A stretch of 63,298 bases of DNA, counting the filler, from Reticulomyxa filosa (taxonomy: Eukaryota; Protista; Foraminifera), in NCBI GenBank assembly GCA_000512085.1. It is 19 parts of 19 records of this genome, joined end to end, with 100 filler letters (N's around TTAATTAATTAA, not from the genome) between each part and the next. Parts side by side here need not be neighbours in the genome. Positions count along the whole stretch, not along the records: positions 23,935 to 39,591 come from ASPP01023936.1; 18 more parts are not named here. One strand, 5' to 3'. The notes beneath the pieces were generated by a model, which saw only the letters and a list, made by a program, of their open reading frames with translations, was not told where the DNA came from and searched no databases. How positions within the stretch are numbered: the stretch's first letter is position 1; the number at the start of each line of letters is the position of its first letter. Both the position numbers and the translations under genes were made by a program. This document shows, piece by piece, positions 12,655 through 56,146 of this stretch.

Positions 12655-14600
12655 GTTTTTTTTGGGCACTTACGGATTTATATCATTGGCCTGTTTCATT
12701 ATGAGCGTCAGCCACTCGCCAGCATGGCGTCCGTCGTTTCACTATTATAATAAATACACTGCTCTGTGCGGGTTCGTCTTGTGTTTTGGTCTGATGCTTG
12801 CCACTTCGTGGATGTATGCACTCATGGCTTTTGGAATGGGCGCCGGCATATGCTGTTATATCATTTACAAAAAACCGGATGTTTATTGGGGATCCGCCTT
12901 GGACAGTCGAGCTAAATACAAGGTTTGCCGAATTTATTTATTTATTTTTTTTTTTGAATTAACTTATTTCCAAACTTTTTGCTGGGAAAGAAAAAACTTG
13001 AATGTAACAACAAAATTAGGCAAACGAAGCAGCTTTGGCATTGATAGATGTCAAATACCACGTAAAAAACTACCAACCTTCGTTTTTAGTGTTGAGTGGC
13101 GACCCAGAAAAAAGGCTCCCTTTGATCAAGTTTGTCCATACATTACGACATGGTAATGGAACAATCATCTACGGTGATGTCGTGTGTGGAAAACTTCGCG
13201 AGCAATTTAAATCGTTCAATGCAAACAGCCGTCGCTTCTTGCCCAAGCAATTAAAGATTCGTGCGTTTTACGAAAAAATTGTCGCTCCCGATTTGAGCAC
13301 TGGAGTAGAAGCATTGATGCAATTAAATGGCTTAGGAAAATTGAGAGCCAATATTTTGGTTATGGGATTCAAAAACAATTGGCATGATTTTACACCTACT
13401 GCACAAGCAGAGCAACAACTACTCGTCAACGCAAAAAAAAAACCATTGATAAAAAGTGTCACTTTTCCAATGAACAATACGTGCAATTATTGGACGATTG
13501 CCTTGTGCGCAAATACATTACTTTTATTTTTTTGCTTTTTCGTTTTTGTTTGTATACGTATGCCGTTGGAAAAAAAAAAAAAAGGACTACAAAATGGGTT
13601 TTATGATTTGTCGAGGCTTGGAAAATATTCCGTTTGGTAAGATGAAGTCAGGCAATGTGACAGTGAACATGAACGGGCTAAGGGACTTACCCGTATCTTC
13701 CAACATCACAATAATTGATGTATGGTGGCTATTGGATGATGGTGGACTATCGTTACTGATTCCTCACATATTGAGTATCGATCAATTTTGGAAAAAACTC
13801 AGTGCGTCACATCATAGACATGATACCACTGGAACAAATCACAACGATAAAGATGATGTGGTGAACAACAAAGACAATAACAAAACATTAATTCGAAAAA
13901 AACAACGGTATATTGTAAGATTATTCTTGGTTGCGGATGATAACATTGGGGGACCACATTCACATGACGAACATACTACTTCTACCCTCGCCGTTCCAGC
14001 TGCGTCACTTGTAAGATCCAACACCAGCGAAAAAAATGTTCACATGAGTATAACACATTCTTCCAAAAGTGATGAATATCACTTCCGAGAAATGTCGAGA
14101 ATTTCTTCACAGGGTTTGGTTGATATGCACTTGCTAAAAAATCTGGATGACACCACTGGTAGACCTTTTTTGTTTATATGCTTGTTTTTCTCTTTCATAT
14201 AATAAAGTGTCGCACATGTATAGCATGGCAGGCAGAATTGGCTGCGTTATTGCGCAAGTTTCGATTAAATATTAACGGCCCGTATCCAATACGATCGAAC
14301 TGTCGTGAACCAACAATCGAGACCTTTCAGACTTTTTGTAACTTGACAGGTTATCAAATGGCAAATCATGACTCTTGGAGTAATACCAAATTGAAACGCT
14401 GGCTACGTGTTAGTGAATTGATTAACATCTATTCGCATAATCAAGCTTGTGTATTTGTCACAGCACCTCATCCAAGTTCATTCATCGAGCCAACTATGTA
14501 TTTGGGAGTGCTAGATATGCTGAGCAGAACGAATGATAAAAGGGCCACCGTTTTGCTTCGAGGAAATGGTGATAACGTTCTCACTTTTTATTGGGAGTAA
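12655..14600 (+). CDS. Cation-chloride cotransporter (SLC12/NKCC-KCC family), 3' part, multi-exon
   Basis: SPAWRPSFHYYNKY, PDVYWGS, HVKNYQP, GLGKLRANILVMGFK, IDVWWLLDDGGLSLLIPHIL and LLRGNGDNVLTFY are SLC12 signatures. Confidence 0.95.
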
Positions 14601-15178: not shown

Positions 15179-16214
15179 AAAAAAAAAAAAAAAAACCATT
15201 TCGAATGAATCCTCCGGTCAACTCAAATTCGACAGCTAATTTGTGCAGGTCGATATCCTTGGCGGCAGACAAAAGTGATTGTGGGAGATGACTGTTCCAA
15301 ATTTGTTCTCGCAAGTGGACATCTGGAGGAGGGAACTCCACGACCAAGTGTATCCTCCGATGCATGGCCTCGTCCAAGTCAAAAGGGCGATTTGTGGCAA
15401 GCAATATCAAGTCGTCGTATTGCTCGATCATCATCAGTGCAACATGCACTTGGGATCCTCCAAATTGATTGTCACGTGATTCAAATAGCGATTCGCACTA
15501 TTGGATTGCGCACCACACATACAAAAAAAGTAATAAGACATATTATTTTTAAAAAAGGTATACATATATATATATATATATATAACATGAGTGAAAAATA
15601 AATATTGAAACTTCATCGAAGAAAATGACAGCATTTTGAATTTTGGCCTCTCGAAAAGCCAATCGCAGCATTTCATCGATAGCGTCCTTTTGCAAAGCAG
15701 GGAAATTCAAGACTAGCAGCTTGCGCTGGAAGAAATTGGCAATAGCATGTGCCATCATGGTTTTTGCCGGTGCCGGACATGCCAAAGAAAAGAACGACAG
15801 TCCCTTTGCCATAATCACTGGCCACGGCGTTGCGAGCAACAGCACCCTCTTGGGTCTGCGCTTGTGCATTACCTTGCCCTGTTTGCAGTCTTTGCAGTGT
15901 ACGTCGCAGCTCTTCCATCGACGAAATGGTGTTGACAATCAGGTCTTTCTTAGGCTGCGCCAAAACCACCTCGTCCAAACGGACAGTCGGAGAGTACAAT
16001 CCCGACCCTTGCACCAACGACCCAAACTCGCTGTCCAAACCCACAATGTAGTCCACCATCCTTCGGTCAATCTCCACTTGATAGTGCATCAAGTCGCTGT
16101 TGTACACAAACTCCGGCGCCTGCACATGCATTATGTCTTCTTTCACCAGTCGTGCGCTTTTGTAAAAATATTTGCGACAAGCAATTTGGCTTCGCAAATC
16201 TTCACACTACATAC

Positions 16215-20259: not shown

Positions 20260-22023
20260 ACTGTATAACAAGTGGAACAGAAAACTTAGCGGATCAGATA
20301 ATAAACTGAAGAAGCAAATAAATGAAGAATTATCAAGTGGTGGATTAACAAGCAGAAAAAGAATATCCGAAGCAGAAAGCAGAAGGTCGAAAACATCAAC
20401 AATAAGTGTGCATACGGTATCAGAAAGTCAAACCGAGATTTGAAGAAAAACAAATAGTAGGTCGAAATCACCGAAAGATCAAGAAGAAAATCAGAGAAAC
20501 AGATGATCGTCAAGAAGCGAAAGAGAAAGAGGTATATCAAAAAATTGAAGTAAGCGGCGAAGCAGGTTAATTGAAGGAAGTATAAGGAAATGAGATTTTA
20601 TCATGAGGTTATGTATGGAGGGAACAGATCAGGTGTTCTGTTTCTTGCAACTATCGGCAAAAATGATAGAGGTACAAAAAGCAAGAGCAGTAATGGGAAA
20701 AAAGGAATTCAAAGTGATATTTCTGAATATGCATGGGGATTTTCGAAATAAAATAAACAAATACTCACCATTCAGGATTTTCTTGAATAAACAAAAAGCG
20801 GACATAATCGGATGCTGCGAAACAAAATTAGTGGGAAATTTGAAACAAGGTTGTATCGATGATATAAAAATAATACATCAACTATCATATTACAGAGCAT
20901 TAACAAGCGAGATAAAACCAAGCAATGGAATGTGTATGATAATAGATAGTACACAAGAACACAAAGTTAAGTTAAACAAGTATGCATCGATTTTATAAGT
21001 ACGGCGATCTTTGAGGATATACCTATGGTGGTAATTTTAGTATATATCCCCCCGATGGATAAAATCAATGCAGTACATATAGATAGGGCGTGGCAGGACA
21101 TACAAAACGTAGTAAATGTCTTTCAGAGCCTACGATATGCAATACTACTGATGGGAGACATGAATGCAAGAACCAAGTATACGGGGGACAAAGTGAATAA
21201 TCAAAATGGAAATCGATTAATGGAACGGTGTCAAAGAAATGCGCTACTAATATTAAACATAGAGAACTGCAAAGGGCAAAGAACTTTTCATGCAAACAAG
21301 ACAGAGGCAAAAATATTCTCGATTGTTGACTATGCGATAGTCAATATTCACGAATTCTGGGAAGAATCACGAATAAAAATGGAAGTGTTAAAACAGCATG
21401 TGGCATCGGACCATTACCCAATAATGTGCACATTTGAACAAGGAAAAACTGGAAATACAAGATCAATGAGACTACATGCACCATACCACTGTAGGGTAAG
21501 TAACGAGACAGAACGGATCCAAAGGGCGGCTAAAGCATTCGTGGAGATGATGGAAACTAAGCGGAAGGAGGATATTGATGGTAGAACGGTAAAAGAGAGG
21601 TACAATATAATAATGGAGGAACTGTACAAAACATTAATTGATAAGAAAGTGTAACATTCAGAAAGAACACTACAGAATTGGCAGGAAATCGAAGGCCAGA
21701 GACTGAAGAGCTCCATAACATATTGGAAGAAATAAATAAAAAGATACAGATGAACGAGCATGAATCCGAGCGTGTAAATGATTTAATAGAAAAGTACCAA
21801 AATGAGCAACAAAAACAAAGCCAAAAGGAGATAGAAAGGTTATTGAATAAAATACAAGAGCAACACAAAAAGAGGAATGACTTTGAGGTATATAAAAGAA
21901 TCAGACTGGAGGATAAAGGAGAATGGTTCCCGGTGTACGATGAGTGAGAAATAGTAATCCAGCAAAGCGAAAAGATTAAAGTGATATCAAAGTATTACGA
22001 AAAATTATACAGTGAGGATGAAG
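20260..22023 (+). mobile_element. Decayed non-LTR retrotransposon (LINE): APE endonuclease domain and linker
   Basis: APE motifs FLNMHG, DIIGCCETK, VYIPP, LLMGDMNAR, NQNGNRL, RTF, SIVDY and SDHYPI, followed by KYYEKLYS. Contains stops and frameshifts and has a purine-rich sense strand. Confidence 0.92.
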
Positions 22024-23934: not shown

Positions 23935-23966
<32 letters not shown>

Positions 23967-23976
23967 GTTTGTTTAT

Positions 23977-24189
23977 TTATTTGTCTTTATCTTTTTTTTT
24001 CTTTAATGCATATTCTAACGTAACTGCTGTCAACTCGTAGTCCGGATGTAACAAGTCCTCATTGCCGTCGTAGTCGACAGTCTGTAGCTTTGCGTTACTC
24101 ATACTCGCCGTAGCAACAGCCAATTCCAAATTAGTTCGTTCATCTTTTTTCCCTTCTTCAGTATCTAAATTTCGTGGAGATTCCAGCAT
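23977..24189 (-). CDS. First exon of an unknown gene (truncated at contig end)
   Basis: ATG-initiated, hydrophilic and coding-like in composition; no recognisable motif. Confidence 0.35.
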   Translation of the reverse strand: MLESPRNLDTEEGKKDERTNLELAVATASMSNAKLQTVDYDGNEDLLHPDYELTAVTLEYALKKKKDKDK

Positions 24190-24616
24190 TTATTTGATAG
24201 GAAGAGACTTAAGAGTAAAACAAAAATCTAGTGCAAATACGGAAAAAAAAGCTCAAACGTTGGGGTGCTTTTTTTTTTTGCCTTTTCGCAAGTGGACAAG
24301 TTCGTTTAAAACAACCTACCAACAGTTTTATTTTTCTTGTCTCATAATAAAACCAACTGGTCTATACTAAAATTGCGTTTGAGAGAAAAAAAAAAATGGA
24401 GTCAATAGAAATGGTGTCAACAATGTTCTTACAACAGAATTTTTTTTTTTTTTTTACTTTGAATTGTATGCTATACTTGCATCTTGTTTCAATTTTTAAA
24501 TTCAAACACTGGAAAAAAAAAAAATTGAAGTAATTTGAACACTGATTTTGTGTGCATAAGTTTATTGTAAAAATATACTTCATCATCACAACTAAGCAAA
24601 AAAAAAAACAACTCTT

Positions 24617-27084
24617 TTACACATTGTTTTTTGTCAAAAGGATAAGTAAAAGACCAAGATGATGGTCACGAGTAATGTGACAGGAAAACTGGCTAAAATC
24701 TGCAACGGTGTGCAAATACTTGACATTGTCCAAACTTAGAGGGAGTTGCAAATATAGCTGATGAAGTTGACTTTCTCCAAATCCTTTGAGTACTCCAAAT
24801 ACTTTGTCGTCAAAATCCTCCTTTTCTTCATCCGCAGCTTTGCTTATTGTTTCAAAATGAGTTGACAACTCCGAAACTTTCTCCAATTGCAACGAAAAGC
24901 GTTTCAAATATCTGTTGTCGCTTTCAAACAACTCTTCCAAAAATGTATAGAGTCTGTCCAAATCAAATGGAATATTCAAATGCACTGGCTCTAGGAACAC
25001 CACGGTCATTTCTTCAATGAACAAATATGAGTTATATACAATACATTCTTTCAAAGCGGAAAGCACGCTCCGAACTTTTATGGCTGCAGGGAAGCTTACA
25101 TGCAACGACCTCAGCGAAGATAAAGCGATGCTATTGCCAAAAGAATCAGAGTCAGTTGCATCCGCACATTTTTTCAAATGCCACAAAAAGCCAAATGCAT
25201 CAACGTTGGTTTCGATACATGACAATTGATTCATATCGTTGGTAATGACAGTCTCTAAAATTTTGTTCCATGATAAGTTGTCTTCAATTAGTCTTGCCGG
25301 CAGTTGCAAATAGTCCCCGGAATGAACCACTTCATTGCTTGTGTTTACTATCAGAGTTTGCAAACTTGGAGCCATTTGAAGAAGATGCACCACATTGCTT
25401 TTTACATCATCAAATTTTACTGCGAATCTTTAGAAATGCATATATATATGCATATATGTACATACATATATATGTATACAATCGAATGTATAAAACAAAC
25501 CATATAATAATAATAACTTGAATTACAAACCTATAATAAATTTTCAAAGTCTCGAGACTCTGAAAAAAAATTTTCGAATTGGACGTAAAAGTTTGAGGAG
25601 AAGATAAGTCGAGTACTAATTCTTGCAAGCCGTTGAAAAAGGAGAGAGCCGTTACTTGTGTGATAGTGCTCCACTGCCAACACGACAGGCGCAAGAGATG
25701 AGTGCATAGATTGATAGAAAAGGGCAAGGTGTTTGTTTTGACTACGAGTTCTTGCGCCAAGGCAATGGGCTCGCAAATTTGTGTCAACGAATGGGTCATA
25801 TCAAATGTTGCGTTTATCACAAATGTTGGCACTCGGATCTGTGTCTGTTGCAATAGAGTGCACATAAGCTCATACGCCTTTGCACCTTTATACATATATG
25901 TACATATATTTATATAATATATTACACCATTGCATTTTTTTTTTTTTCCTTGCAAACTTTTTTCTTATATCCCTCTAAAAATCACAAGTTCAACTCAACT
26001 TGTGGGAACACGATAAGTAGGAGCTTTCCAATATTCGAGTATAGAACGGGTAATAGCTCGTTCTCTGTTTTCTATTTTATGGAGTGGAGAAAAGAATTGG
26101 AGCCAAGAGATGCATATCTTTAACTGCCCTCTAGTAAACGATGAGGTTTGCAGCGTTTCGGTAAACACGCCCGAGAATATAACTTTTTGGAGCGAATTGC
26201 GACAGATTTGGAGCAAAGCGCCAAGCAGCTGACAAAAGACAGATTTCCCAAAAAAACGTCGCTTGGTAGCACTCGCTGTCGAATTCAATCAACTTCACGT
26301 GTTGAAACCGCCACAAATCGTCTCTTGCAGATTTGACCAATGGATCAATATTTATCATTTCGCGCAATAATTCTGGCGCGTCTTCTTCTTTTCCCTCCAC
26401 GAATGCTGTTATTTTATCGACTGTTTCTCGGACTCGCTCTGGTAGTATTTTCTCTTGATCCCAAACTCTATATGACACACTCCATTTCGGAAATTTACTG
26501 CTGTCCTTTTCGATATTACTGTCATCTGGTAACGATTCTTTGTACAATTCCAACAAATTTTTGGCCGTAAGTGATGCCAGTTCCATTTTCACTGACTCCC
26601 AATTCATTCTTTCTTTCTTGTCTGTTCAACAAAATTTGTATACGTATGCTTCTTTTTTTTTTTTTTTTTTAATTTTGTCTTTGTGGAAAAGTTTCAAACC
26701 TTGCAATGAAATTTGTGGACTCAGAAAACGCCTGACAAATCTTTGGTTGATACACACTTGATCAATACTTAAAGGCTCCAAACACAATTGCTTCAGATCT
26801 CTGTGCACTTGAGGAATCACTTTGCACACTGCCTCAAAATTCAGAAATCGCAATACGTGACACAGCACATGAGTTGGAATGTCTAACAGTGTTATTCGCT
26901 TTACCGGCAACATTCTGGGAAAACTCGTTTTTTCATCATTCTCTTTGTTTTGTCGTTTTGTTTTAATCACAAAAGGCGATGCTTTTGCCAAAACCCAAGA
27001 CGGTTGGTTAGTCTGACGTCGATTATACTTTTCTTGCTGTTGCAAGCGATATTGTTGCAACTGGCTCTGGAATGACATGATCAC
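24617..27084 (-). CDS. F-box protein with LRR-like C-terminal region, multi-exon
   Basis: F-box LLDIPTHVLCHVLRFLNFEAVCKVIPQVHRDLKQLC, followed by LxxLxL units (LQELVL, LETLKI, LQTLIV, LRSLHV, LKRFSL, LHQLYL). Confidence 0.8.
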
Positions 27085-27949
27085 TAATGACTCGCACAGA
27101 TAATGCTTCAGGCTTCAAAGACAAATTTTTTTTACCTTTATTGATGTTATGTCCTGTTTGAGATTGAACGCTTTAAATTTGGAAATATATGATACATTTA
27201 AAAAAAATATTCAATTTTATTGCTCAATATAACTCCTTAAAAAAAAATCAAAGTGTTAATGACTCCATTTAACATTAACACTTCGTCGTGTGTATTTTGC
27301 AAACTTCTTATGCTTAGTACTGTTTAGAAAGCAGCAATTCTTGTACTCGTATACCTTTTGATGGCATCAAATAGTATATAATCGTCAACAAGCGAGGGCA
27401 TGACAGCTAAAACTCCAAAACTTTGGGGACAGCTTAAAAATAAAAAAAATAAGAATAATAAGAATAATAATTTTGAAAGCAACTAAAAAATTTAGAACAC
27501 TGGTCGTTATCACTACAAACAGGACATAACAAGGAAGATGTGGATATATTTTTTGACAGCAGGTTATGTATTCCACAAAGAGCAAAAAGGTTGGTAGAAG
27601 CAATATTGGACATACATTAATTGGACTTGCCAACAGATTTGTGTTTACTAATTGTGGACTACGAAGATCATAGAAAAATTTACATATGATACATAATGTA
27701 AAGTTATTCCCAACGTTATATACATTTATTGCTTATTTATGTCAAGATATTACGTTTGGTATTGGATGGATGGTACTTACTTTATTTGTTTTTTCAGGTT
27801 ATTATATACAATACATATATTTATCTATTTATTTATTTTTAAAAATTAAAATACTTATTTATTTATTTGTTTATTATAATTGGCATTATTTTTATTTTGG
27901 CGTAATCAATTTTATTATCGTTATGTACCTGTTGTTGGAAGCAAATTAA

Positions 27950-28520
27950 TAGATTGGTATGCCTGTTCAATGTTGGCATGGAATCGTAGACACAGTACAA
28001 ATAAAAAAGAAGAAAATAAGGGTGACGATGATATAGAAATAACAAAAAAGAATAAATAAAACATTGGTTAGATAAATTAAAAAAACATGAACAAGTATGC
28101 TCCACTTTAATCAATCAACTCACTCCAAAGTATTCTGAAATGAAACCATTTATGGCTGGAATATTATATGGTAATATTGAAAATAAAAAAGAGCCATCAG
28201 GATCAGGTTTATTATATTTTTGGAAATTGTTGCATTCATCGCCATGCATTGTTTGGATGCATACAAAGTGGACATAAATAGTTCATTTCTTCCACGTTCA
28301 CTCCAAACGTGTCATACAGCGCTTATTCATTCGTTCAAGTCATTACTTATTGATTGGATCAAAGTTGATAAAGATAAATGCGTTTACGATGTATTACTCA
28401 AACAGATCCTGAATAGACCATTGAACAATATAATGAAATTGTATTTACTCAGTTTTCAATATCTTCTTCATCATTCTGATATTCATTTATGAGTAATGCA
28501 ATTACTGCACAATCACAATG
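27950..28520 (+). pseudogene. Relic of the post-NACHT region of a NACHT/HEAT-repeat family
   Basis: HEQVCSTLINQLTPKYSEMKPFMAGILYGNIENKKEPSGSGLLYF, then a shift, then WKLLHSS and CLDAYK..HSFKSLLIDWI. Resembles a foraminiferan NACHT-HEAT family as I recall it; many lesions. Confidence 0.5.
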
Positions 28521-28859
28521 TCTTATAGACTTTTCTGGTGTCCATCCATTAAAAAAAAGAAAAAGGTTATTTAATGCTGTCTCTAAATAGGCATGTGTGT
28601 CACAGCTACAAAAACATTTTGAAACCAAAAGTGATAAGCTCCTGTGGGGAAATGATTGGTAATCATTGGAGGTGGTACTGTGTCAGACATTGTAACCACA
28701 CTGATATTCAAACAAATGAAAGATTAGTAACAAAATGTTGCAAAAGGGAAAACCCTTTTTCAAGTTTACAAAAGTATTGTGGTCGACAATTACAAATACT
28801 GAAAAAATACAGTGTTTTTATCTATAATCATAATATTAGTTTGGTTTTAAAAAAATTGT

Positions 28860-29081
28860 TGTAGGACAAGTCACTACTATAAATACTTGAACACAAATGG
28901 AACTGAGGAATCCCCAGTAAGCTAAACTTCCTCAACCAACTACTTCCTTGCTTTTCTTACTTCCCTTTTTGTCGTTTTGATTTATTATTTAATTTACTTT
29001 GTTTTACTGAAAGTCAATCTCATTCGAGTAAAACCCTTTCGTATTACATTTAGTGTAGCTCTTCGCAGTAGACTCCCCACA
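28860..29081 (+). mobile_element. Solo LTR-like/MITE-like element (~222 bp)
   Basis: Starts TGTAGGAC, ends CTCCCCACA and is flanked by the direct repeat TTGT (28856-28859 and 29082-29085). Has an internal TATAAATA. Related copies at 4750, 7632, 14890-15078, ~31920-32138 and a CTCCTACA end at ~8418. Confidence 0.65.
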
Positions 29082-29339
29082 TTGTTATTGTTTTTCGCTT
29101 TACAAAAAGACATATGTACTGTTTTTAATCACAGTAAGTATTGATAAAGAAATTTTAATCGATATACTTATATAATATGCAACGAATTACATTGAAATAG
29201 CTTTTTGGACAACATTCCGTTTTGTTGGACCGATTGAATATAGTGGAGTAAAAATTTTAAAAAACGTTGCTCTTCGACTTACACGAAAGAAAGGGAATGA
29301 AAAGCTAAGAGTTTTCAATTAAAATGAAATGTTTGGAAT

Positions 29340-31566
29340 ATGCAAGTTCTGTTGACGACATGTTTAATCCATTTAAAAACGAAGAAATTAAATCCGAATC
29401 TCTTAGGAGTTACAAAAGATTCAGATGTATATGAAAAAAGGGGAGACTTGGGGTTGAGAATTCGAGACCTTTTGGAAAATGTCGAAACAAGCATCAAAAA
29501 AAAAAATAATGTAAAAACATGTGAAGTTTGTATCATAGGTGGTGGTATCTCTGGTTTGACAGCGGCCGAACATTTGTCAAAATCAGGAAAATTGAAGAAC
29601 GTGGTGCTGTTAGAGGCGAACCGACGTTTAGGTGGCAGGGTCCGTGGTGAGAGATTAAAAGTATATGATGATATGAACGATTTGTCGAAAGTGAGCCATG
29701 TAATGGTGGACGTTGGTGCTTCATGGTTACATGGTTTGAATCAAGAGTCCAATGACACTTTCATTCATTTCTTACAAAAGAGCGGGATAGATTTTTCTCA
29801 AACCCAAATGACATTTTACCCTTGGCCAGTGACATTGTTTTCTCCAGACGAGCAAATGCCTTGCGACTACCAGCCATCGAACGAAAGCATGGTGGTACAC
29901 TCAAAGACGATACACCCGTTGCTGTTCAATTCGAAAAGTGCCACCACGTTCCGTCCGAGTGGGTTGTACATTAGTCCATCTTATGGTAAGGCATACGATC
30001 GCGTGCATATTTTCCACGACAAAAACCCCGTCGCAAACTCGGCTAATTTGAATCCTATTGACTTTGTCCGCAAAGCTAAACGACACTATTTTGACACTGT
30101 GTATTCGCCCGTCACCGTCAATTCGAAAGATTCTACACCAAAGCAAGGTACCCCTTTTTTCCCCTCACCTCCCTCCCAAAAAAATTTTTTTTTTTTTTTG
30201 CACCCCCCCCCTCCTGTTCGCGGTGATGCGAAAGTAATAAAAAAATAAATAAAAAAAAAAAAAAGAAGTGCAAAGAAGAAAAGGAAAAAGAAAAAGAAAA
30301 AGAAAAAGAAAAAGAAAAAGAAGAATGGAAATTGGATGTGTCAAAGTTGCCGGAGAGCACGGTAAGTTATGAGACGTGGCTACATTCGGAAATGAGGAAA
30401 GTGGAACCGAATGTGAAGGAGGAGTATGCGAAGCTGTGCGTGCTGTGCGAAGATGTGGTTCGTTGCAAGGAAGAAGGAGGAGATATTGACAAATGTTCGA
30501 TTCGCGACACATGTTTGTGTGACGAGCACTGGGATTACGGTTCTCATTTTTGTAATCTAGTCGGGCAATTCAGCAAAACGATTACCTTTTTGGAATCCCA
30601 AATTGCAAAGACAAACCAACAACAGCAACAGCAACATAAAATTGCTGACGAAGCAAAAATTCATGGTACCGAAATTCAATTGAATTCCAAAGTCTGTTGC
30701 ATTGACTATTCGTTTGAAAAAGAGAAAGACTGGATTGTAATTACATACAAAAAAGAAGGGAAGAAAAAAAAAAACAAAGCGTCACAAATGACGTTGCATT
30801 GTAAATATGTGATCATTACAGTCCCTTTGCCGATCTTGCAAAATGCCACCAAGTTTCGGTTTGTTCCGGAATTGAGCGTCCAAAAACGCAATGCCATCAA
30901 TCGCCTGTGGGTTTGCAAAGCTTGCAAACTGTTTGTACAAATCGTTTCGTCCAAAAAAGATGATTTGTGGCCGTTTGATGGCAAGACAAAAGTGGTCCAT
31001 TTGCGCTCGGTCATTCACCCCGATGACTTTACCACTGTTGCCGGACACACGATGCCGACCATTAGTGAAATGGAGTTTTTATTATGTCCGAGGATCCAAA
31101 CTTTGGAAAAACAGGACGACAAAACGTCGTCCAATCCATGCGTGGTGTTGATGTGTTGCTTCATTGGCACGCATGCCTTACAATCCATTGATTTTGTTGC
31201 CAAATTTGGTCAATCCAAACTGGCCGAACAAGTTGTCGCTTTTGTTCGTCAAATGTATGGAGTTGATCATATCTCCACCGGCAACTACATGTTTTGGAAT
31301 TGGGACTCTGTCGACTCCGTACAATGTGGATATCACGCACCGGTCTCATTTACTGTCGAGTCGGCTCATGAATTGCAATCTCCTATCTTGGATCGCATCT
31401 TCTTTGCTGGAGAACATACGGTATTCTTAATGTTGTTTTTTTTTTGAAAGGTCTAATGTCAAACTTACTGCTTAAATACATAAAGGTGGAGTCTTTTCCT
31501 GCTGTGCAAGAAACAATGAAAACTGGACGAAAAGCTGCGGAGCAATTACTCCATATCGTGGGTTAA
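29340..31566 (+). CDS. Flavin-containing amine oxidase (PAO/MAO/LSD1 catalytic-domain family), multi-exon
   Basis: IIGGGISGLTAA, LLEANRRLGGRV, VDVGASWLHG, VIITVPL, IFFAGEHT and last exon TGRKAAEQL. Start position uncertain. Confidence 0.92.
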
Positions 31567-31918
31567 TTATAATTGAAGTTTTTTCTTGTTGTTGAACGAG
31601 TTCCCAAGGAAAAAAAATCTACAATGTCTTTATTTTTTTATTTTTTAAAAAAATAAACTTTCATATAGATCGTTTCACATACAAGTCTGTTTTTCTCTTT
31701 ATTTGATGATTCCTCGGATTGAGTTTATACATTTTACTATTTTGATATTTTTTTATTCTTTCGCCGTTAAAGGGCTAATATGTAAATAGCATCTCAATAT
31801 CTTTGCAGTTTTTTTTATATCAAAAAGAATAGTCCTCTTCCAGTTCCACTTATATTGTGCAATAATTGCAAAGTTAAATTCTAGTCAAAAAAAAGACAAT
31901 GTATATGTCTACATTGGT

Positions 31919-32138
31919 GTACAGTACTCGTGCAGGTCAACTTGTTGACTACAAGGTTCCAGGAGAACGAACCTCCTTTTCTCAAAAACGTATTTACCCT
32001 CACTTCTCTTTCTTTTGTTTAGTTTCTTTTTGTTATTTAATTTTAATTTTGTATTTTATTGAAAGTCGCTCTTTTGAACAGCTTTCGTATTACTTTTCGT
32101 GCAATCTGGCACTCTTTCCAACACCGGTAGTTAAAACA
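31919..32138 (+). repeat. Diverged TG...CA repeat copy upstream of the PIWI gene
   Basis: Shares TTTAATTT..TTTTATTGAAAGTC...CTTTCGTATTAC with 28975-29048, and a GTTAAAACA end with the 4750-4923 copy. Confidence 0.5.
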
Positions 32139-32641
32139 GATGACGCGTCCATATTCTTTATCTATTGCAAATTTCATCAAAAATATAACATTTCTGCGAT
32201 CTCAGCAACATTTAGACTTTTCAAGCTAAAATGATAACTTTGAATGTCAAAGTAACAAATAAATCAATTATTAAATCTATTTTTGACATCAATTGCATTT
32301 TGGCTGTGCTAACAAAATTTTTTTGAAAATTATATGATTACTTTTTTTAGCTTTAGAGTTTATTTTCACGTATTACTTCTTGCGGTAGCAAAGTAAACCA
32401 GAATTAACATATCTGCTTAATAAAAGAAACAAAAAAATTCAGAGCTAGGAAAACTGTAGTTTAGAAGATAAAGAAATAAATTAAAACAAAACAAAAAAAA
32501 AGCAATGAGGATGTTTTTGCAGAGTTGTACCTGATCATTTTGATGTTTACAATTTTGAAAATGAATCTTTAGAGCTGGAAACAACCTTTTCAAAAAAAAA
32601 AAGTTGTCGTAGTTCTGTTTAAAAAAGAAGTAAAAAAAAAT

Positions 32642-35600
32642 ATGAGTTTTGCTGGTCGTGGACCAAGAGGTCGAGGCCGAGGACAAGGCCGAGGACAAGG
32701 AAGAGGACAAGGAAGAGGACGAGGACGAGGGGGTGATACAGGCAGAGGTGGAGGCCAAGGAAGAGGAAGAGGAAGGGGAAGAGGACGAGGAAGAGGCCGT
32801 GGTGAAAGTGCAAGAAGAGCCCAGCACAGATTTCACGACAAAGCAAGCCAAGCGTTAATGCAAGAAGTTGAAAAATTAAACCCAGATGTACCTGGAGTTC
32901 GTCCAGTCAAGTGTTGGATATTCGACAATGTTGAGTAAAGAAAAAAAATGCAAAACAGTACCTTAATTTTTTTTTTTTTTTAAATCTCGACCGACTCAGT
33001 CCTTTGAAATTTTATACGTAGACCCCATGGGTAAAAGCAGAGTCATTAACAAAAGAATCATTTTATTACTACAACCGCGAAACAAACACAAGAAATGACA
33101 CCATTCCATCAGAATTAAATGGAAAGACAGGACAACTGTGTTACGAAGAGCACAGAGCAAAATTTGAAGAGCGCCCATCTCGTTTTGGAGAGGAAAGGAT
33201 GAAACGAATACAGAATGTTGTAACAAATTCCTTCATCGTGACGGGAGAAATGCTCACTATCCCAATTGCACATTATTTGGTGACATTTGATCCAGACATT
33301 GACCCAAGGGATTTGGCCTTGAGGCAACAAATTGTTATTGGGACAGATAGGTTTGCTGAAAACACTTTTTTTTTTTTTTTTTTTGTGCATACGTACACTT
33401 TATACGCACACTCAAAAAAAAAAAAAAAGGAAAAGTCAAATGAAGAACGATAAAATTTTAAGAGATGCTTTTGATAAGTATGTATTTGATAATCACGCAT
33501 TATACGCTTTTGGCAAAAAGTCATACCCTCCAAAAGTACAATTAGATTTGTCACCACGAAGTTTTGCCTTTTTTTTTGTTTCTTTTTTTTTTTTTTTACG
33601 AGAGGTACAAGCTGGAGTGAAAAAATAAAATGTACAGACAAAGTTACATTTGTATGGTACGATTCATTGTACATTAATTCCCCGGAAATGACAACAGATC
33701 AGCAACAGGCATTGCTGAATATTTTTAATCGACGAATCATGCAGGAGTGTGGCCTGACGAGGATTTCAAGGGGATGGTTTTTGGGAAGACAGAGCGCAGA
33801 CCTGTCGAGCATGAAACCAATCGATGTTGATGGTTGTCGAGTATTACAAGGCTTTGAGGTAATGTTTTCCAAAAAAAACTGTCACTCTATCTCTTCCAAA
33901 TTTTTTTATCTTGTCTTATCTTACTTTTTTTTTTTTTTTTTTTTTTGTTGTGTGACAAAGTGCTCCGTGCAAGTATTGTCCACATCAACGAAAGCACCAC
34001 AAAGTGCAGTCTTTAAAGCTGATACAATATCCAAGTTAGTGTCTCGTGACACCGTTCATGACATGATTGAAAATGAATTTAATCAGTTTAATTTTAATTC
34101 ATCGGACGTTCAAGAGAGAATCAGAAAAAAGCTTAAGGACCGCTATTTCTGCGTAACGTATAGTAGACAAACGCAGTTAATTGACGACATTGATTTTTCA
34201 CAAACTGAAAACTCAACTTTTCAACTTAAAGTTAAGTTAACACCAAAACAAAGATTTTTTTTTTTTTTTTACATTTAAAGACAGTTCTACCAATGTTACG
34301 TATTGCATGAACAGACTGGCGATAAAATTAGTTACGCTAAATATTTGGAAAATGCGTACAGAATTGCAAGCCCACAGAAAGAGAAATTTGTCATCAAAGA
34401 TAACAAGGGTATGCGTTTGTTTGGTATTTTTACATTTTTTCCCTTTTTTTTTTTTCCTCTCATTTATGCATCACAAGATTTTTTTCAAAAAAAAAAAAAA
34501 TAAAATAGGCAGATGTTTTTTACCCCAGCATGTGCAACTGACATTGAAGTCAGACGATGTGGAAGACTATACACAAATATTGGAAAAAACCACGGCCCCA
34601 ATCCAAGACCGCCTTCATCGCATTGACGGATTGGTGGAGGTAATGCGCAAAACGGGTGAACGAATTGCCAGTAAAAGCAAAAAAAGGACCGAACCAGAGA
34701 TCCAAGAAAAAGAAGAAAAAAAAGAAGTAGCTGTCATGGAAACTTTTCCATTCAAAATTGATCCCAGGCCTATCCGGGTAAATGCAGTGCAATTGCAGTA
34801 CCCAAATATAATTTATATGACCAAAGATTACGATGACCCAATCAAAACAAGCGTAACAAATATTCAGTGGGGAAGAAGCGGGGGAGGCTACATTGGGGGT
34901 ATGGTGCCGTTAAGAAACTGGGCGATTGTGGTGAACAGCAAGGACAATTACGCAGACAACCAAATTGCAAACATTGAACGAGGATGGAATTCGTTTGTTG
35001 CGTCACGTGGTTTGCCAGAAAGTTCAGTGGCGAACCCCAGCGTTCTGCGTATCGATTTTGGTAACATTGACGGCTATCGTGCCATCCTTCAAAAAGCATA
35101 TCAACTGGTAATACTGGCATTGCCAGAAAAAGAAATTGGGTCGCAATACAAGTCACAATTTACTCGAATTTTGCAGTCGGACAAAGCAAGTAACAAAGCT
35201 TGTCTAATTCAATGTTTGTTGGGAAGAAACGCAAGTGATCCAAATGTTATTAAAGGAAGCTTCGATGCCATAATGGCAAAGATTGGAAATGTGCTTTTCC
35301 AAATTGATCCAAACCTCCCTAATGGGTCAAAGGTGATCAATATGAACAAAACATGGTGTGTAGGAATGGAGTTATCACACAGAGCAGAAAAACCTAGTGC
35401 AATTATACTCGCACTAAGTACGGCCCCATTAGAGGGAAGCCTTAGATCGTGGCACTTTACAACGCATTTAAATCCATCAAGAAAAGATGTAATTACATTA
35501 GAAGCTGCATCAACTTTGATGTTTGACGCATTAAAAATGGCCGTTGAAAATGTCGGATCAAGAAATTTACCAGAAAATATTATTTTTTTGCGAGGGGGGA

Positions 35601-36315
35601 TGCCAGATAATCGATTACACGAGCTTTATTCCAAAGAAGTGGTAGGGGTTGCAAGAGGGATCAACCGATTTAAAGGCCTTTTCGAAAAAACAGACGAAAA
35701 CGTTAAAAAATGGAAATGTAAGCTTACCTATGTGGTAAGATGCAAAAATGTCTTAGACCGATTCGGACAACTGCAAGAAGGGGGAAGAGTTGGCCCAATT
35801 GAATCACCTGCCGTCATTTTCGACGGAGTAACATCAGAAAGGTATGTTGTGATACAGCAACATAAACAAAAAAAAAAAGTTACTAACAATATACACAGAT
35901 TTTGGGATTTTTACGTTTGGCCGTATCATTTAAAAAAAGAAGAGTCAAAAACTAGACCATCTCGTTACGTGGTGCTAAGAGATGATATTGGTTTGGCCAA
36001 GAAAGGAGGAACATTTGATTTGTTCCAATTGATTTATTCGCTGTCTTACACATATGTGTTCTCAATCCCATTCCCACGTTATAGTTTTTTTTTGTACAGT
36101 GGTTTGCCCTTTTTTTTTTTAGAAAGTGTTGTTTGAAAACAGTGGGCCCAACAGCATCACCCGGACCATTGCAATATGCAAAGCATTACGCGGAAAGGTT
36201 TTCGCAAATGATTTTCAAGGCAGATAAGTCAATCGACATGTTAAAGCGAAGCAATAAGTTAATCAACCAACCGCAAGTCTCGGTGCCTGTGCAAGATAAC
36301 GAAACTACAAATTAA
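32642..36315 (+). CDS. piwi: PIWI-clade Argonaute, predicted non-slicer, with RG/RGG tail and WW-like domain; 9 exons (approx. 32642-32929, 33022-33350, 33430-~33535, ~33603-33858, 33961-34230, 34315-34408, 34509-35841, 35899-36077, 36143-36315)
   Basis: N: RPSRFG..VVTNSF..HYLVTFDP, YVFDNHALY. L1: LLNIFNRRIM..LTRISRGWF, VLQGF. PAZ: SKLVSRDTV, VTYSRQTQLIDDIDF..NSTF, ISYAKY. MID: NWAIV, LVILAL..QY, IQC, AKIG. PIWI: CVGMELSH, IIFLRGGM, WDFY, TRPSRYVVLRDD, LIYSLSYTY, SPGPLQYAKHYA. The exon 3/4 junction phase is unresolved. Confidence 0.93.
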
Positions 36316-36535
36316 CATTTAATGCAAAAGAGACAATTCAGTTAAGAATTGGTCATAAAAATGATTGTGCTATTTTTTTTTTTTTGGCAGTGTAACAATG
36401 CAATTTGGTTTGAAATTGCAAAGTAAAGATTTTTTAGAATTGTTTATCACAATTTGACCATTGAAAAAATGTAGAAATCCAAATATGAACAATTAGAAAA
36501 TTAATTGTTATTTGAAAAAAAAAAAAAAGAACAAT

Positions 36536-37714
36536 TTATGTAGCAACATATTCAGTAGCCTCATTTTCGTGCTGAGAAAAAACATACTTTTCCATTTTGT
36601 CACGAACAGTGGGCTCACCTTGAGCATCAACATTGCCAGAAGGAAACAAGGGTTTAGTTTCTTCGGCAGATTTGTTGTACTTTGTCTTTGGTTTTATTCG
36701 CGCTTCTTCATATTTAAGTAGCAAAAGCTCTTTTTCATTGTCAATATCAATGCCACAGTCACAAAGTTTGGGAATGCAGCAAAAGGCGCCAGTTTTTTCC
36801 ATGTAGTCAATATACTCTTGGCCAAACTGATGGACGAGCAATCGTTCCTCCTGTCGTATTCGCGAGCTGGCAACCGCGACATTGAATACCAAGCAAAGGA
36901 ACACCAGCCAGCTGCCGGTGCAAAGAAAAAATCCCACACTAAATAATGTCAATACAGTATACGTTGGATGTCTGGCGAATCGATAAGGTCCATTCTTTAC
37001 CAATTGGTGGTTTTCTACTCGACATATAAGCATTGTCCACATTTTACCTTTTCTCCCCCCCCCCCGTCACCATTACCATTATCATGTTATGTCATTGAAA
37101 CATTATCGTAGATTCAATTACAAAGACAATATATACGTATGTATTTGTACATAATAATATATAACATAAGTCATTTTTGTAATGTCGCTCTGGAAGCTAA
37201 TATATAAACCTTGAACATACCTAATGTCGACAAAACCCAACACATTAGAATATCTGCAATAAACAGCATTATCAAACCGATAAGTCGTATCACGTTGGGA
37301 ATGCCTATTGTTAGTTGGTCCGGAAAGAACAATGCCAATATTATTGATACGCCAATTGCCACAAACGAAATTCGTAACATTATTGGTCGGTTGTCGATCT
37401 GTGCTTCATTTTTGTCAAACGATTTTGAGTGTATGTTTTATCACTACTTTTTTTTCAAAAGTTAAACGTATCACACACTCAATACCATTCGTCTTTTTTC
37501 TTCAACCAAAAAAAAAACAAAAACAAAAAACATGGGATATCAAAAACGGGATACAAAAACGGGATATCAAAACTTGTTCTATGACAATTTGCCTCTCTGA
37601 ACCGCACGAACGTTTATACAAGAAATACACAAGGATGAGTATCATTAACCAAGCCAGAGCTTCTCCTGAAATCTCAACAATCTCAACAAAGCTTGGACCA
37701 CTCATGATCGATAA
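36536..37714 (-). CDS. Isoprenylcysteine carboxyl methyltransferase (ICMT/PEMT-like) membrane protein, multi-exon
   Basis: HQLVKNGPYRFARHPTY and RIRQEERLLVHQFGQEYIDY; upstream exons are hydrophobic. Confidence 0.88.
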
Positions 37715-40700
37715 TGTCACTTTGGTTTCAGCGCGCTTAGAGAGCTTCTCAAAATAAAAAAAATTTTAATTTGATACGTAAAATATTGCAAAAGACAAAG
37801 AAGGTTTTGAACACAATTTACTTTTAAAAATCTAAAGTTTTCAGTTTTTCTGTGTTTCTTTCTCTTGCACTTTTTTTTAAAAATGTTGGTTCTGTTTCTT
37901 CCGTTATTTGTAACGTTTATTCTTTAAATTTATTTTTAGAACGAAATATATCGACAGTTAAAGCGAATCGTTGTTTTTTTAGTGTCTTGTTCATGCATGT
38001 GCAAGCCTTTGACTCTCGCTCTCTCTTTTTTTTACATGCAGAAAATCATTTGCAATACGTAAAAAAAAAAAGAACTTTGGAAAGCGTTGGTAACAAAGAA
38101 AGTGGGAAAGAAACAAACTCTAAAGGAGTCTCAAATAAATGATTGTTTAAAAGTATATCGATATACAATGAATGAAAAGCATAAGGTATAGGAGCGTCGA
38201 ATAGTGTATATGACAGCGACGAGAAATTGATGGAATCGTACAAAACACTAATTGTAAACGAGATGAAACAACATTACGAAACTGGTTGGAATATTGCTCA
38301 AACTTCTTTGGCTGCAAACGAACGCACACGACTGGTAACAATTCAAATATTTTTTTGTTTTACTTGGTATACGTATTTTGCGTGATGTGTCCATGACTTA
38401 TTTTTAAGGGACTTGGCACTTTCGATGCACACTTTTATGATGATAGTGGTCAAGAGACTATGCTTGCAACTTTGCTAATTATGCTTACTTGATTGGCATG
38501 AATGCACATGAAAGTGTGTATTGGCATACCAGCACGAGTCCTGGCCCCTCTTCCTTTGTACATTTTAGAAGAGTGTATAAGACTTTGCACACGTAAGCAG
38601 GCAAATGAAGATCAATTTTCTTTGTACAGAACGGGTATGAATTAGTATGGTGGAAAGGAGGAAAAAAAATTAGGAAAGAAGACACGTTTATTAAAAAAAA
38701 AGAATTGCTGATGTTTTCCAATGCACGACCGAAACAAAAAATGTAATGGGCTGAAACCTAATGGCTGTTCTGACATGCAAAAGCCATATGTATTTTAGCT
38801 GTGGAAGTTTTTTTATTTTGATTCGTTCTTTGGCTCTTTGTTTTAATATAGAAACTGTGCAATTTAATTTTTTCTCATTTGTGCTGTTAAAAAAACGTCT
38901 GGTTTTTGTTTTCAATAATACTGACCTTCTATTAAAAAAAGCGTTTCATTTTTAAACGCCTTAAAAGCTGGTTTTCAATCATTCCAATTGTTTAGCTACA
39001 CTCACCAAGCTAAAAAAAAACTGTTGATCAAAAACTTTGACTATTTTTGTTTTATTCTTATTGATTGTAATTTTTATGTTTCTTTTTGTATAAATTTGTT
39101 AAAAATCTTTAACTATTCGACTCCTGCATGTTGGTATATGCTTGTAAAGTTATTACCTTTATTTTTTCTATAAAAAAAGAACATTTTACTGATTGATTAG
39201 CCGAGAGAACATTTGTGAATGATTAGCTTGTTATTTCATTAAAAATTTTTCATAATCTTGACAACACACATTGATTTAGTTCCACAAAAAATTAACACAA
39301 TTAATTGTGAAAAAAATAGTTTCAAATGTTGACACATATCATCCTTTTATTGATTTTTTTCACTGCTTTTATACTTACATAAAAATCTTTTCCATTTGGA
39401 TAAGTAATGGTTTGGAAGCCGTTGTTATTTGATTCCCTATAAGACATTGATGATAATTACCAGACTTAATTTCTTTGACAACAGTCATCGGTATTTTTCA
39501 ATAACAGTTTTTTGCACATTTCATTCACACGAATAATTTTTTATTTCAATTACAGTAGGTTGCAAAGAAAACTGAACGCCTAAAACGACATNNNNNNNNN
39601 NNNNNNNNNNNNNNNNNNNNNNNNNNNNNNNNNNNTTAATTAATTAANNNNNNNNNNNNNNNNNNNNNNNNNNNNNNNNNNNNNNNNNNNNAATTTGCAA
39701 TTTTTTGAAATATTTTGTCATTTTTGACAAAAAAATTTAAAAAAAAATTTTAAAATTTTTGTATTGATTTCTATAATTATGATTCCAAAAACGGATTAAT
39801 TACAGATAATTGAAAATTAAAATTGTTTTTTGAATGAATCATTACTTTTTTTAAGTAATGGTTTTTCTGTTGAAGAAAGTTTTCTTTTTAGAAAAAGTTC
39901 TCTTGTGCATTACGAATGTGGTTTTAGCTCTCTTCAAACAGCCTAACAATCCAAAGTATACAACATGAAGAGTTCCTTCACCAATGTATTCCTCTGCAAA
40001 GTGCAATAGTTGCAGAAAAAGAAAGAAAATAATCAGTGTAAACCCAACACACAAAACAACAACACCATTCGAAAAACAGGTGCTATCATCATGGCCCAAA
40101 CAAATACGCTTGCCTATTGTGATCTCTCCTGACATTGGCAACATTCAGGTTGACGTTGTACATCTGTCTTTAAGTCAAGAGAGTACATCATTTTTTTTTT
40201 GTTATTTCATTCAATCTATTTAGCAAGATCATGTTTTTATGTATTTTTTTTTATCACTTTATTGTGACCAAACTCACTTCAAATCTAATACTTCAATTGA
40301 CTATCCAGAACACTCTCGTTATCTTATAAAAAGGGATTCTGAAAAACAACGAATAAAAAAGTTAGAAATGATTCAATTTAAGAAGTTGAAAAGTTCTTCT
40401 TTTTCGGAATTGTCATCAATGGGAAAAATGTTCAATACCAAATACGAGAAAACAGAGGAAAAGCCACAGGTAAATGTGCATACAATCAACACGATGATAT
40501 TTGGCATGTACATTTTCAACAGTACTAAAAAAAAAGCGACGTGTTACCATTTTAACAAAATTATACTTTCTGAACATTCCAGGGGTGGGGATCAGATTGG
40601 CAAATATAAATTATTTTTTGCGTAGATGATGAAAAAGTAGTCGCTAAGGGGTGAGAAACAACGTATACAATAGCCTGTCAAAAACACACATTTTTTTTTT

Positions 40701-53278: not shown

Positions 53279-56146
53279 ATCGAAAAATTGAAAGATGACA
53301 TCAGTCAGACTCTCAGTAGCGTAAAAGACCAAATATTAATTATAAACTAATTACTTTTTTTTGAAGAATGTTTTTGTGTAAACTGTCCTTTAGATGAAAC
53401 ATTTTTATCATTCATGTTCGTTTTTTGCACGTTTTTTGGTGATATAAAACCATGATTGGCAAAAAGGTTGACACAATACTAAATCAGATTTGCACACTCT
53501 TTCATCTTTTCAAAAGTAGTATTATGATATTTTTGATTTAAAAACATAGATCGTTTATTTGTTGACTTTTATCGGATACCAAAATCTTCTTTCAATATGG
53601 CCAATTTTAACCATCCATTATTTTAAATTTATTTTTAAGCGTATGGATATTTTTTGTTGCCTGAGTGAGATATCCCATGTATACGTATTTATCTGCTACA
53701 ATATTAATACACTTGTTTTAAAAAAAAACTGAGTTGATGAATTTTTCAAGCGGCCGTTTTTGAGGGTGATTGAACTTGAGATGAAAAAAGTATTAAAAGT
53801 CTTGTTTGACAAGTATACACTTCAAAGATAATTTCAGAAGTAGTAAATGAAACACTGTGATGAAAGTCCAAATTTTCAAAAAAAAGAGCTGCTTTTTCTG
53901 GTCACAAGTGTATTTTTTTTTTTGTGAAAAATCAAAAGTTTTGAGTTTTTTGTTCGACGTCAGCCTGATTTTCAAATTAAAGAAATGACAAGGCAAAGTG
54001 AAGAAGGTTGTAAAAAGAAGTTTAACCCACACAAACAGTAATTTTTTTTGACGATCAGCTTTTTTTTTCCTTTCGTTGACATATTGAGTTACAATTTTGT
54101 TATTTCACAGTATGNNNNNNNNNNNNNNNNNNNNNNNNNNNNNNNNNNNNNNNNNNNNTTAATTAATTAANNNNNNNNNNNNNNNNNNNNNNNNNNNNNN
54201 NNNNNNNNNNNNNNGCCGGTACACAAACTAGTTGATATGCAATTTTATGAGTCAGCCATTGATTCAGATGAATGATTGTATGAATCACATTGGTGTTAAA
54301 TGAAAAAAAAAAGAGAGCCATTGACTACCACTGCCGTCTTTCCAGCCATCTTTGCGATACATTGTAAAGATTTTGCAATATTAAACATGTGGATTTGATT
54401 GTATACTTGCTTGGAGAATTGTTTGCTTGGAATGAAATTGGTTTGCTTCCCAAACATGATAAAAGTGGAGCGATAATGGGCCAGTAGTTGGATTGAACGC
54501 ATCGCAATCAAGTGTGAAAAACTTCAAAGAAGTAGTAATTTTGATTCTTTGAAACGTGGAATCTTTCACATAATTGAATAAGTGCACCTTTTCGTATTGA
54601 CAATAACACACATATCGCCTCCCCGATATCTATAACAAATAATTTCTTGGACCAAGTAATTAGGCTTGATCATTTGACGCGTAGTTCTTTGATGGCATTG
54701 CACAACAGATTAGTCGCATTTTTTTCTTCCAATGTGAAACACTTTCAGAGCACATGCAAGACTTTTTCTCTATATGTGCAATACACCACGTTCTTCAAGC
54801 ACTTGCAAGGCTTCGGTTCCATGTCCTCTTAGTATATGTATCGCAAACAAATGTCTTGATAACAACTTTCTTTTTTTATCTTCAATTTGTTTTTTAAAAA
54901 TTTTTTAAAATTAAAACCAATGTATCATAAATACTTGTTGTCACTGGAACAGTTACAGCATTCATCACAATATCTTACGATATGTTCATCGACATCCATT
55001 AAATGCCGACCGATCTCTTTGAATGCATCGGATCTTTCCCTTTTTTCTTGTTGACGCTTCCACACGCACATCTACGTATACTTTCTTTGCCATTTGCCGC
55101 CTATATTTCAAAAAAACGCTTATTTTAGGATTGAAAAAAAAAATGAGGAAATACACTAGGATAGTATGTGAAGTGATAAGAATTCTGAAGGAGATGATTT
55201 TTTTTGTTATTGGAACTTGTTTTTGTGCTAATTCGTGTCGTCGTCTTCAATGTCTATTTTTTTATTTTAAACAATTCAATATAAAAAAGATGTATATTTG
55301 TTTATTCCACTTAACTATCCATTTGGTACCCGCATGAAATAACAATTTTTGGAGCATAGCTCCAACTTAAACAAAATATANNNNNNNNNNNNNNNNNNNN
55401 NNNNNNNNNNNNNNNNNNNNNNNNTTAATTAATTAANNNNNNNNNNNNNNNNNNNNNNNNNNNNNNNNNNNNNNNNNNNNTAAACCAAAGCCCCAACTAC
55501 GGCACAAACAACAGCCCACCCAAATGTTGCAGCACTTCCTTTAATCATACATTCAACAACACATCCAACAAGAATATGATCAACGTGTGAACCACATATC
55601 GTAGTAACTTGCTTGTATTTTTTTGTGTATGTCACAAGCTTAAGGTTATTATTTTATTGTGGAAGCATCTCAAAAATTTTGTGAAATTATGGGTTAGAAT
55701 ATTCTAAATTGATCATGTTAAAAAACACATTGACGTCTTTTTCTTATTTCTTACCCCTATATTTACATTGATTCATCCCAACGCCTTTTAGTTATTGAGC
55801 AAATTATAAGTTAAGATATAATATCATCACTAGTTCTCCTCCTGTGAAGAACTACGTTTGATATTTGAATATCAATTTCATTCTATTCATTTCGCTGATT
55901 TGTGAATTCAAAGTTGGTTTTATCTTCCTATAAAATTGGTAAAATAAAAAGTTTTCATAGATTATTGGTTCTTTGCACTAAGATTTGCAATTTGTAGCAA
56001 AAAGAAAAAAAAATCGTTTAGGACAGTCAATTTACAAATTTGCTTTCCACAAAGCAGGATTCTTCAATTTTGTCGAAGCAAACAAAAAGGAAGTTCGAAC
56101 ATTAAGGCCCCTTGGCGCATGTTAATAAAGAGTTGAATATCAGCCA

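Follow-up and report, generated by a model that had tools for sequence, protein, structure and literature searches.

An Argonaute gene of the foraminiferan Reticulomyxa filosa encodes an intact member of a conserved subfamily with a fixed Glu-Asp-Gly-Lys (E-D-G-K) active site, and we consider it probable that its product is a non-slicing, small-RNA-guided binding platform that would act in silencing through recruited partners. The E-D-G-K site is frozen, where a different degenerate clade of 12 rows has drifted at its sites 3 and 4, and the subfamily sits in an Argonaute radiation that is apparently undescribed.

The gene model and its predicted fold

The window, by which we mean the whole stretch of DNA analysed (63,298 nucleotides), is a series of short contigs separated by runs of N, and the Argonaute gene lies on the piece at 23935–39591. 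Our model of the gene (32642..36315, + strand) has nine exons joined at homology-inferred GT-AG splice sites (32642–32929, 33022–33350, 33430–33560, 33638–33858, 33961–34230, 34315–34408, 34509–35841, 35899–36077 and 36143–36315) and encodes 1005 amino acids with no internal stop. It aligns end to end with P0007, a full-length relative, with 331 of 965 aligned residues identical. The open frame at 34511–36076 is 100% identical to the NCBI protein RFI_27655 of R. filosa, an annotation that is partial: it is without the N-terminal half of the protein and reads through a 57-nt in-frame intron (35842..35898, +), which has GT-AG ends, is absent from P0004–P0006 and has low pLDDT in the structural model. 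For the 65-nt last intron (36078..36142, +), relatives align without gaps over the junction. Both PIWI-domain introns are missing from the three JGI proteins of the subfamily, which occupy most of their own 1.1–1.2 kb contigs; this is consistent with spliced transcripts, though short of proof of expression.

The N-PAZ-MID-PIWI layout of the protein is complete. The PAZ domain (34096..34540, +) extends across three exons, as seen from the P0007 alignment and from a Pfam PAZ match on its first, partial exon (E 9.9e-5, below cut-off), and it is followed by a Pfam Piwi match above cut-off (E 2.7e-8). An AlphaFold2 model of the L2-MID-PIWI part (pLDDT 90.2, pTM 0.90) contains a MID-PIWI lobe with an RNase H-like fold. 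It superposes about equally well by VIA on Siwi (Z 32.7, rmsd 3.0 over 459 residues) and on human AGO2 (Z 31.9), and human AGO2 is ranked first by Foldseek; phmmer with the single window protein against solved structures gave no Argonaute match, and profiles were needed to reach one. The preliminary description had stated that the fold motifs and long reading frames are intact, which agrees with the nine-exon model, its 1005 codons without a stop and the confident Argonaute fold.

On the same contig, a flavin amine oxidase lies upstream (29328–31570, +) and an ICMT/PEMT-family methyltransferase downstream (36539–37405, −), neither with an evident tie to RNA silencing. Elsewhere the window encodes a WD40 repeat protein (830–1924, −), an SLC12 transporter (12656–14597, +), an AAA ATPase with a winged-helix domain (15552–16206, −) and an MFS transporter (56129–57545, +). 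An endonuclease of the endonuclease-reverse transcriptase family (20971–21651, +; Exo_endo_phos_2, E 9.9e-12) on a short contig is likely a retrotransposon fragment, and the last contig (61300–63298), with 65% GC over 61600–63298, no poly-A/T runs, and CusB/HlyD and outer-membrane efflux domains, is likely a bacterial contaminant of the assembly.

A frozen E-D-G-K site

At the four tetrad sites the window protein has E732 in place of the canonical D (35369..35371, +), D771 in place of the canonical E of the glutamate finger (35486..35488, +), G807 in place of the canonical D (35594..35596, +) and K962 in place of the canonical H or D (36181..36183, +), and so departs from the DEDX tetrad (X = D, H or K) of slicing Argonautes. 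The motifs CVGMELSH (35369), RKDVI (35486), FLRGGM (35594) and QYAKH (36181) lie in frame as the preliminary description gave them. The register of the four sites is fixed because relatives with a DEDK tetrad anchor it: P0007 reads GLDISH, RKECL, FRDGISD and LAKHY where the window protein reads GMELSH, RKDVI, LRGGMPD and YAKHY, with no gap in any motif. The DEDK relatives likewise fix D771 as the glutamate finger, which had earlier been called probable. Alignment to reference proteins had been proposed as a check, and when human AGO2, fly Piwi and MIWI are aligned by HMMER the same placement results, with the finger moved by a single residue in one fly Piwi alignment. The gapless motifs and the matching reference alignments rule out a misregistered alignment. 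The A3 profile, which contains canonical PIWI-like rows, was used for residue register only and not for PIWI ranking.

Five relatives of the window protein emerged from the first search, two from R. filosa and three from JGI, and the resulting six proteins share 40–75% pairwise identity over MID-PIWI. E, D and G are found at sites 1 to 3 in all six, and K at site 4 in all five that reach the last helix; no further E-D-G-K member was found among 175 proteins examined. The R. filosa paralogs were inventoried by protein searches, and their counts are lower bounds. A 48-row tree combines the window model with 47 matches, picked by hand from those well covered, and leaves out sites 732, 771, 807, 813 and 962; in it the six proteins form one clade with support 100/99, and the end branch of the window protein is 0.045.

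The five complete subfamily rows agree at 88 of 243 gap-free PIWI columns, so that invariance of the tetrad alone is just modestly unexpected (0.36^4, ~0.017). In a comparison with 20 DEDK-type relatives, picked by tree position and near-intact sites, six of the 48 columns conserved in both groups are fixed differently (697, 732, 771, 807, 813 and 958), and three of these six are tetrad sites (hypergeometric P 0.0044, calculated post hoc and with related sequences treated as independent). In contrast, the 12-row degenerate clade, which belongs to the same lineage and has 26–65% identity, shows six states at site 3 and seven at site 4. The earlier claim of a maintained subfamily rather than a decaying gene is thus supported: the residues are invariant although the six proteins diverge, the proteins are monophyletic, the reading frame is intact and the Argonaute fold is confidently predicted.

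The tetrad had also been described as replaced at every position. All four sites do differ from canonical DEDH, but two of the replacements are shared more widely, as the 20 DEDK-type relatives have D19/N1 at site 1, E16/D4 at site 2, D20 at site 3 and K19 at site 4. None of the 20 has E at site 1 or G at site 3, and these two residues alone are unique to the subfamily; K is lineage-wide, and D at site 2 occurs also in otherwise intact sites of relatives. That all four changes define the subfamily is ruled out by the K in 19 of 20 relatives and the site-2 D in four of 20.

Adjoining site 3 are D811 and R813 (35606..35614, +). R813 is present in all six subfamily proteins, against Q in 16 of the 20 relatives, and is subfamily-specific. 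All 20 relatives, and canonical proteins as well, have an acidic residue at the place of D811, therefore D811 is no new compensating ligand and is ruled out as a new catalytic Asp. The finger-stabilising residues of human AGO2, given as H600, S610, R668 and E683 in a section of PMC7015924, have their counterparts in H735, S741, R806 and E821, so that the finger network of slicing Argonautes is present in the window protein; within the subfamily H735, R806 and E821 are kept in 6/6 and S741 in 5/6. The basic guide-channel residues K857 and R862 are also kept in the window protein. Because the finger network and both basic residues are retained, the site looks reshaped and held rather than eroded.

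The wider lineage, its N-terminal module and its guide pocket

A profile search of 1.84 billion representatives, with the best 150 of 1951 matches examined, places the subfamily in a large divergent Argonaute lineage that is likely foraminiferan. The lineage takes up 38 of the 48 tree rows and is monophyletic (100/100) on a stem of 0.84. Atlas searches matched generic Piwi/PAZ clusters only, and two scans of metagenome contigs found no locus. One member of the lineage is R. filosa Argonaute-2b (P0163), which shares organism and G-S-x-x-K pocket with the window protein but has a DEDK tetrad and would be the natural slicer candidate. Because DEDK relatives, including P0163, carry K at site 4, this Lys is older than the subfamily. 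The preliminary description had overlooked three things, namely that the H-to-K change predates the subfamily, that R. filosa has a DEDK paralog, and that the lineage carries a WW-like module. On these sequences the simplest reading would be descent of the E-D-G-K clade from a DEDK ancestor; the branches that nest it inside DEDK proteins have support of 88/75 and 85/56 and are not starred.

Other altered tetrads in the lineage are ATDK, SQDS, KDAD, DSGQ, ARDL and DDKR, and the R. filosa pair RFI_07118/07119 is also degenerate. Across the 48 tree rows there are at least six state changes between intact and altered tetrads, and the several branches with altered tetrads suggest repeated slicer loss. 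Altered tetrads were seen in P0026, P0036, P0037, P0045, P0049, P0052, P0060, P0064 and P0078, and in some of these site 1 is Lys or Arg. P0163, P0007 and P0017–P0031 make up a broad eukaryotic Argonaute set with conserved DEDK or DDDK.

The assignment of the protein to a PIWI subfamily stands in part. Its leaning was judged with a lineage-only profile, for which the bit scores are 238 (MIWI), 153 (HrAgo1) and 144 (best human AGO); because MIWI scores above both, the lineage leans PIWI. In a tree of AGO-like and PIWI-like rows without a prokaryotic root, however, it forms its own long-branched clade, the 5′ pocket departs from the PIWI type, and no Piwi_N Pfam match was found among the long lineage members scanned. 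The lineage thus resembles MIWI, Siwi and EfPiwi in the profile scores and in an RG-rich N-terminus, and differs from them in its separate clade, the missing stacking Tyr and an extended C-terminus.

In PIWI proteins the 5′ pocket consists of Tyr, Lys, Gln, Gln, Lys and the C-terminal carboxylate. The corresponding MID pocket of the window protein (35138..35281, +) comprises G-S-x-x-K (G655–K659), Q679, D697/A698 and K702. G-S-x-x-K occupies the place of the Y-x-x-x-K of PIWIs, and neither alignment register gives the stacking Tyr an equivalent; the second Gln site holds A or D, being D or N in 26 of 32 relatives; and about 12 residues follow the canonical C-terminus (36277..36312, +; model residue 568 of 581 corresponds to human AGO2 858 and Siwi 898). 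The pocket alteration is lineage-wide. Beside the pocket (35264–35269), an acidic residue at 697, often with D or N at 698, is conserved throughout the lineage, and we speculate that acidic 697/698 could be a metal ligand replacing the displaced C-terminal carboxylate.

The N-terminus begins with an RG/RGG repeat (32657..32806, +; 17 RG within the first 60 residues), and a WW-like module follows (33025..33108, +) in which the first Trp and aromatic run are kept and the second Trp is Asp (33097). The window copy is weak alone (Pfam WW E 0.086 and 0.14). P0007 shows most of the WW hallmarks, which are a W, an aromatic pair, W-x-x-P and a three-stranded sheet. Its Pfam WW match has E 7.9e-6 and 26.2 bits, just under the cut-off of 26.9, the WW part is modelled as confident strands (96–101 and 106–111, pLDDT > 93), and alignment to solved Argonautes begins only at residue 138. 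A profile of 12 lineage segments, selected by eye for resemblance, matches PRPF40A WW domains (E 5.7e-14) and also TCERG1, Prp40 and Pin1. Pfam WW is found at E ≤ 1 in nine of these 12 segments, and a whole-protein scan gives WW at E ≤ 0.05 in three of 26 lineage members; the module is clearly missing from some. Unlike PRPF40A/Prp40, TCERG1 and Pin1, the lineage has a single copy, placed ahead of the Argonaute N domain, and the second Trp is kept in only two of the 12 segments.

A non-slicing reading and its alternatives

Slicing requires an acidic tetrad that positions two metals. Because the third Asp is a metal ligand and is lost here, two-metal cleavage would be expected to fail. We propose that three tetrad sites and R813 changed on the stem leading from a DEDK ancestor to the E-D-G-K clade and were then held, and that the retained carboxylates, K962, the new R813 and the finger network (H735, S741, R806 and E821) would keep the pocket shaped for target holding. 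The RG tail, and perhaps the WW-like module as well, would serve as the docking site for partners, and a nuclear, co-transcriptional role is plausible. Absence of slicing is likely, judging from the third-Asp loss, RNase H-fold chemistry and the behaviour of Siwi H874K, whose slicer activity is almost nil in a portion of PMC7015924, where fly Piwi (DVDK) also appears as a non-slicing binding platform. Target-bound structures employ human AGO2 D669A, according to the titles of structure entries. Counting against the non-slicing reading are the carboxylates still standing at sites 1 and 2 and D811 close by in sequence.

Two known systems invite comparison. The nematode WAGO clade has expanded within its own lineage and includes non-slicing as well as slicing paralogs. 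It is alike by analogy only, with no named WAGO in our tree, and differs in that the replaced residues of the window subfamily are invariant. Drosophila Piwi, the top VIA match of P0007 (Z 27.6, tied with EfPiwi at 27.0), likewise has Lys at site 4, a non-canonical tetrad in an intact PIWI fold and a proposed binding-platform role, but keeps both Asp and has lost the finger network (K617, A625; from part of PMC7015924). The window protein has instead lost the third Asp and kept the network, and it adds the WW-like module and the altered 5′ pocket.

The same invariance admits another reading, which we think unlikely, in which the site is remodelled and not dead: E732 would reach the space of G807, D771 and D811 would hold one metal, and K962 and R813 would replace the second, giving slow or atypical cleavage. 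Asp-Glu swaps are poorly tolerated by RNase H-fold sites, we know of no slicing Argonaute without the third Asp, and D811, acidic in DEDK relatives and canonical proteins alike, is hence not a new ligand. Invariant replacements with two acids kept, where the 12-row clade drifts, and an intact glutamate-finger network do fit such remodelling, as does lysine as a permitted fourth tetrad residue, so listed in portions of 10.1101/366930 and PMC12094033.

It is distinctly unlikely that the DEDK relatives were already weak or non-slicing, so that the E-D-G-K changes tune target holding or the partner surface and involve no loss of slicing. The near-inactivity of Siwi H874K, itself DEDK (same part of PMC7015924), and the six or more changes between intact and altered tetrads point that way, but 19 of 20 relatives have retained D-E/D-D across long branches, which suggests that metal binding is under selection, and the lineage also has DEDD members (P0042, P0044 and P0058).

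The non-canonical 5′ pocket would tell against taking guide binding by the window protein as given, and a protein that no longer uses a standard guide, serving as a scaffold or structural RNA-binding protein, would account for the missing stacking Tyr, the extended C-terminus and the several divergent paralogs within one genome. We regard this as very improbable, as the pocket changes are common to DEDK members of the lineage and the window protein retains K659, Q679, K702, K857, R862 and its PAZ domain. Gene decay, or an artefact of assembly or annotation, is scarcely credible despite the partial public annotation with its read-through intron, and a pseudogene is ruled out, given an open frame of 1005 codons, the occurrence of the same residues in five further proteins of separate records and the short end branch.

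If the protein is a non-slicing platform, the lost tetrad alone is ordinary because non-slicing Argonautes are common, at about 10% of eukaryotic ones in the part of PMC12094033 that treats them. Less ordinary is that the replaced tetrad stays frozen and does not drift. The same holds for the Argonaute radiation itself, which is divergent, has a WW-like module and a rebuilt 5′ pocket, and belongs to a group about whose small-RNA biology little has been described. Targeted searches of literature outside the subscription journals, and thus without the R. filosa genome paper, turned up no description of Argonautes from Foraminifera, of an Argonaute-WW fusion or of an E-D-G-K site; searches for DEDK gave no match, and Rhizaria are absent from the main text of PMC12477606 and PMC11217426. 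A possible biological setting is offered by Allogromia, in which a PIWI gene is up-regulated in Zerfall according to part of a preprint (10.64898/2026.10.21.760831).

A broader picture, possible though doubtful, is that Foraminifera own an Argonaute clade fused to a WW domain of the Pol II/spliceosome type (Prp40/TCERG1-like), with labour split between DEDK slicers and several independent non-slicers, in which the E-D-G-K proteins would be purpose-rebuilt target clamps that carry small-RNA guidance to nascent transcripts or to chromatin while the nucleus undergoes its extreme remodelling in the foraminiferan life cycle. With a DEDK paralog and at least three E-D-G-type paralogs in one organism, R. 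filosa would allow a direct test of whether a eukaryotic DEDK Argonaute slices and of what purpose Glu-Asp-Gly-Lys serves.
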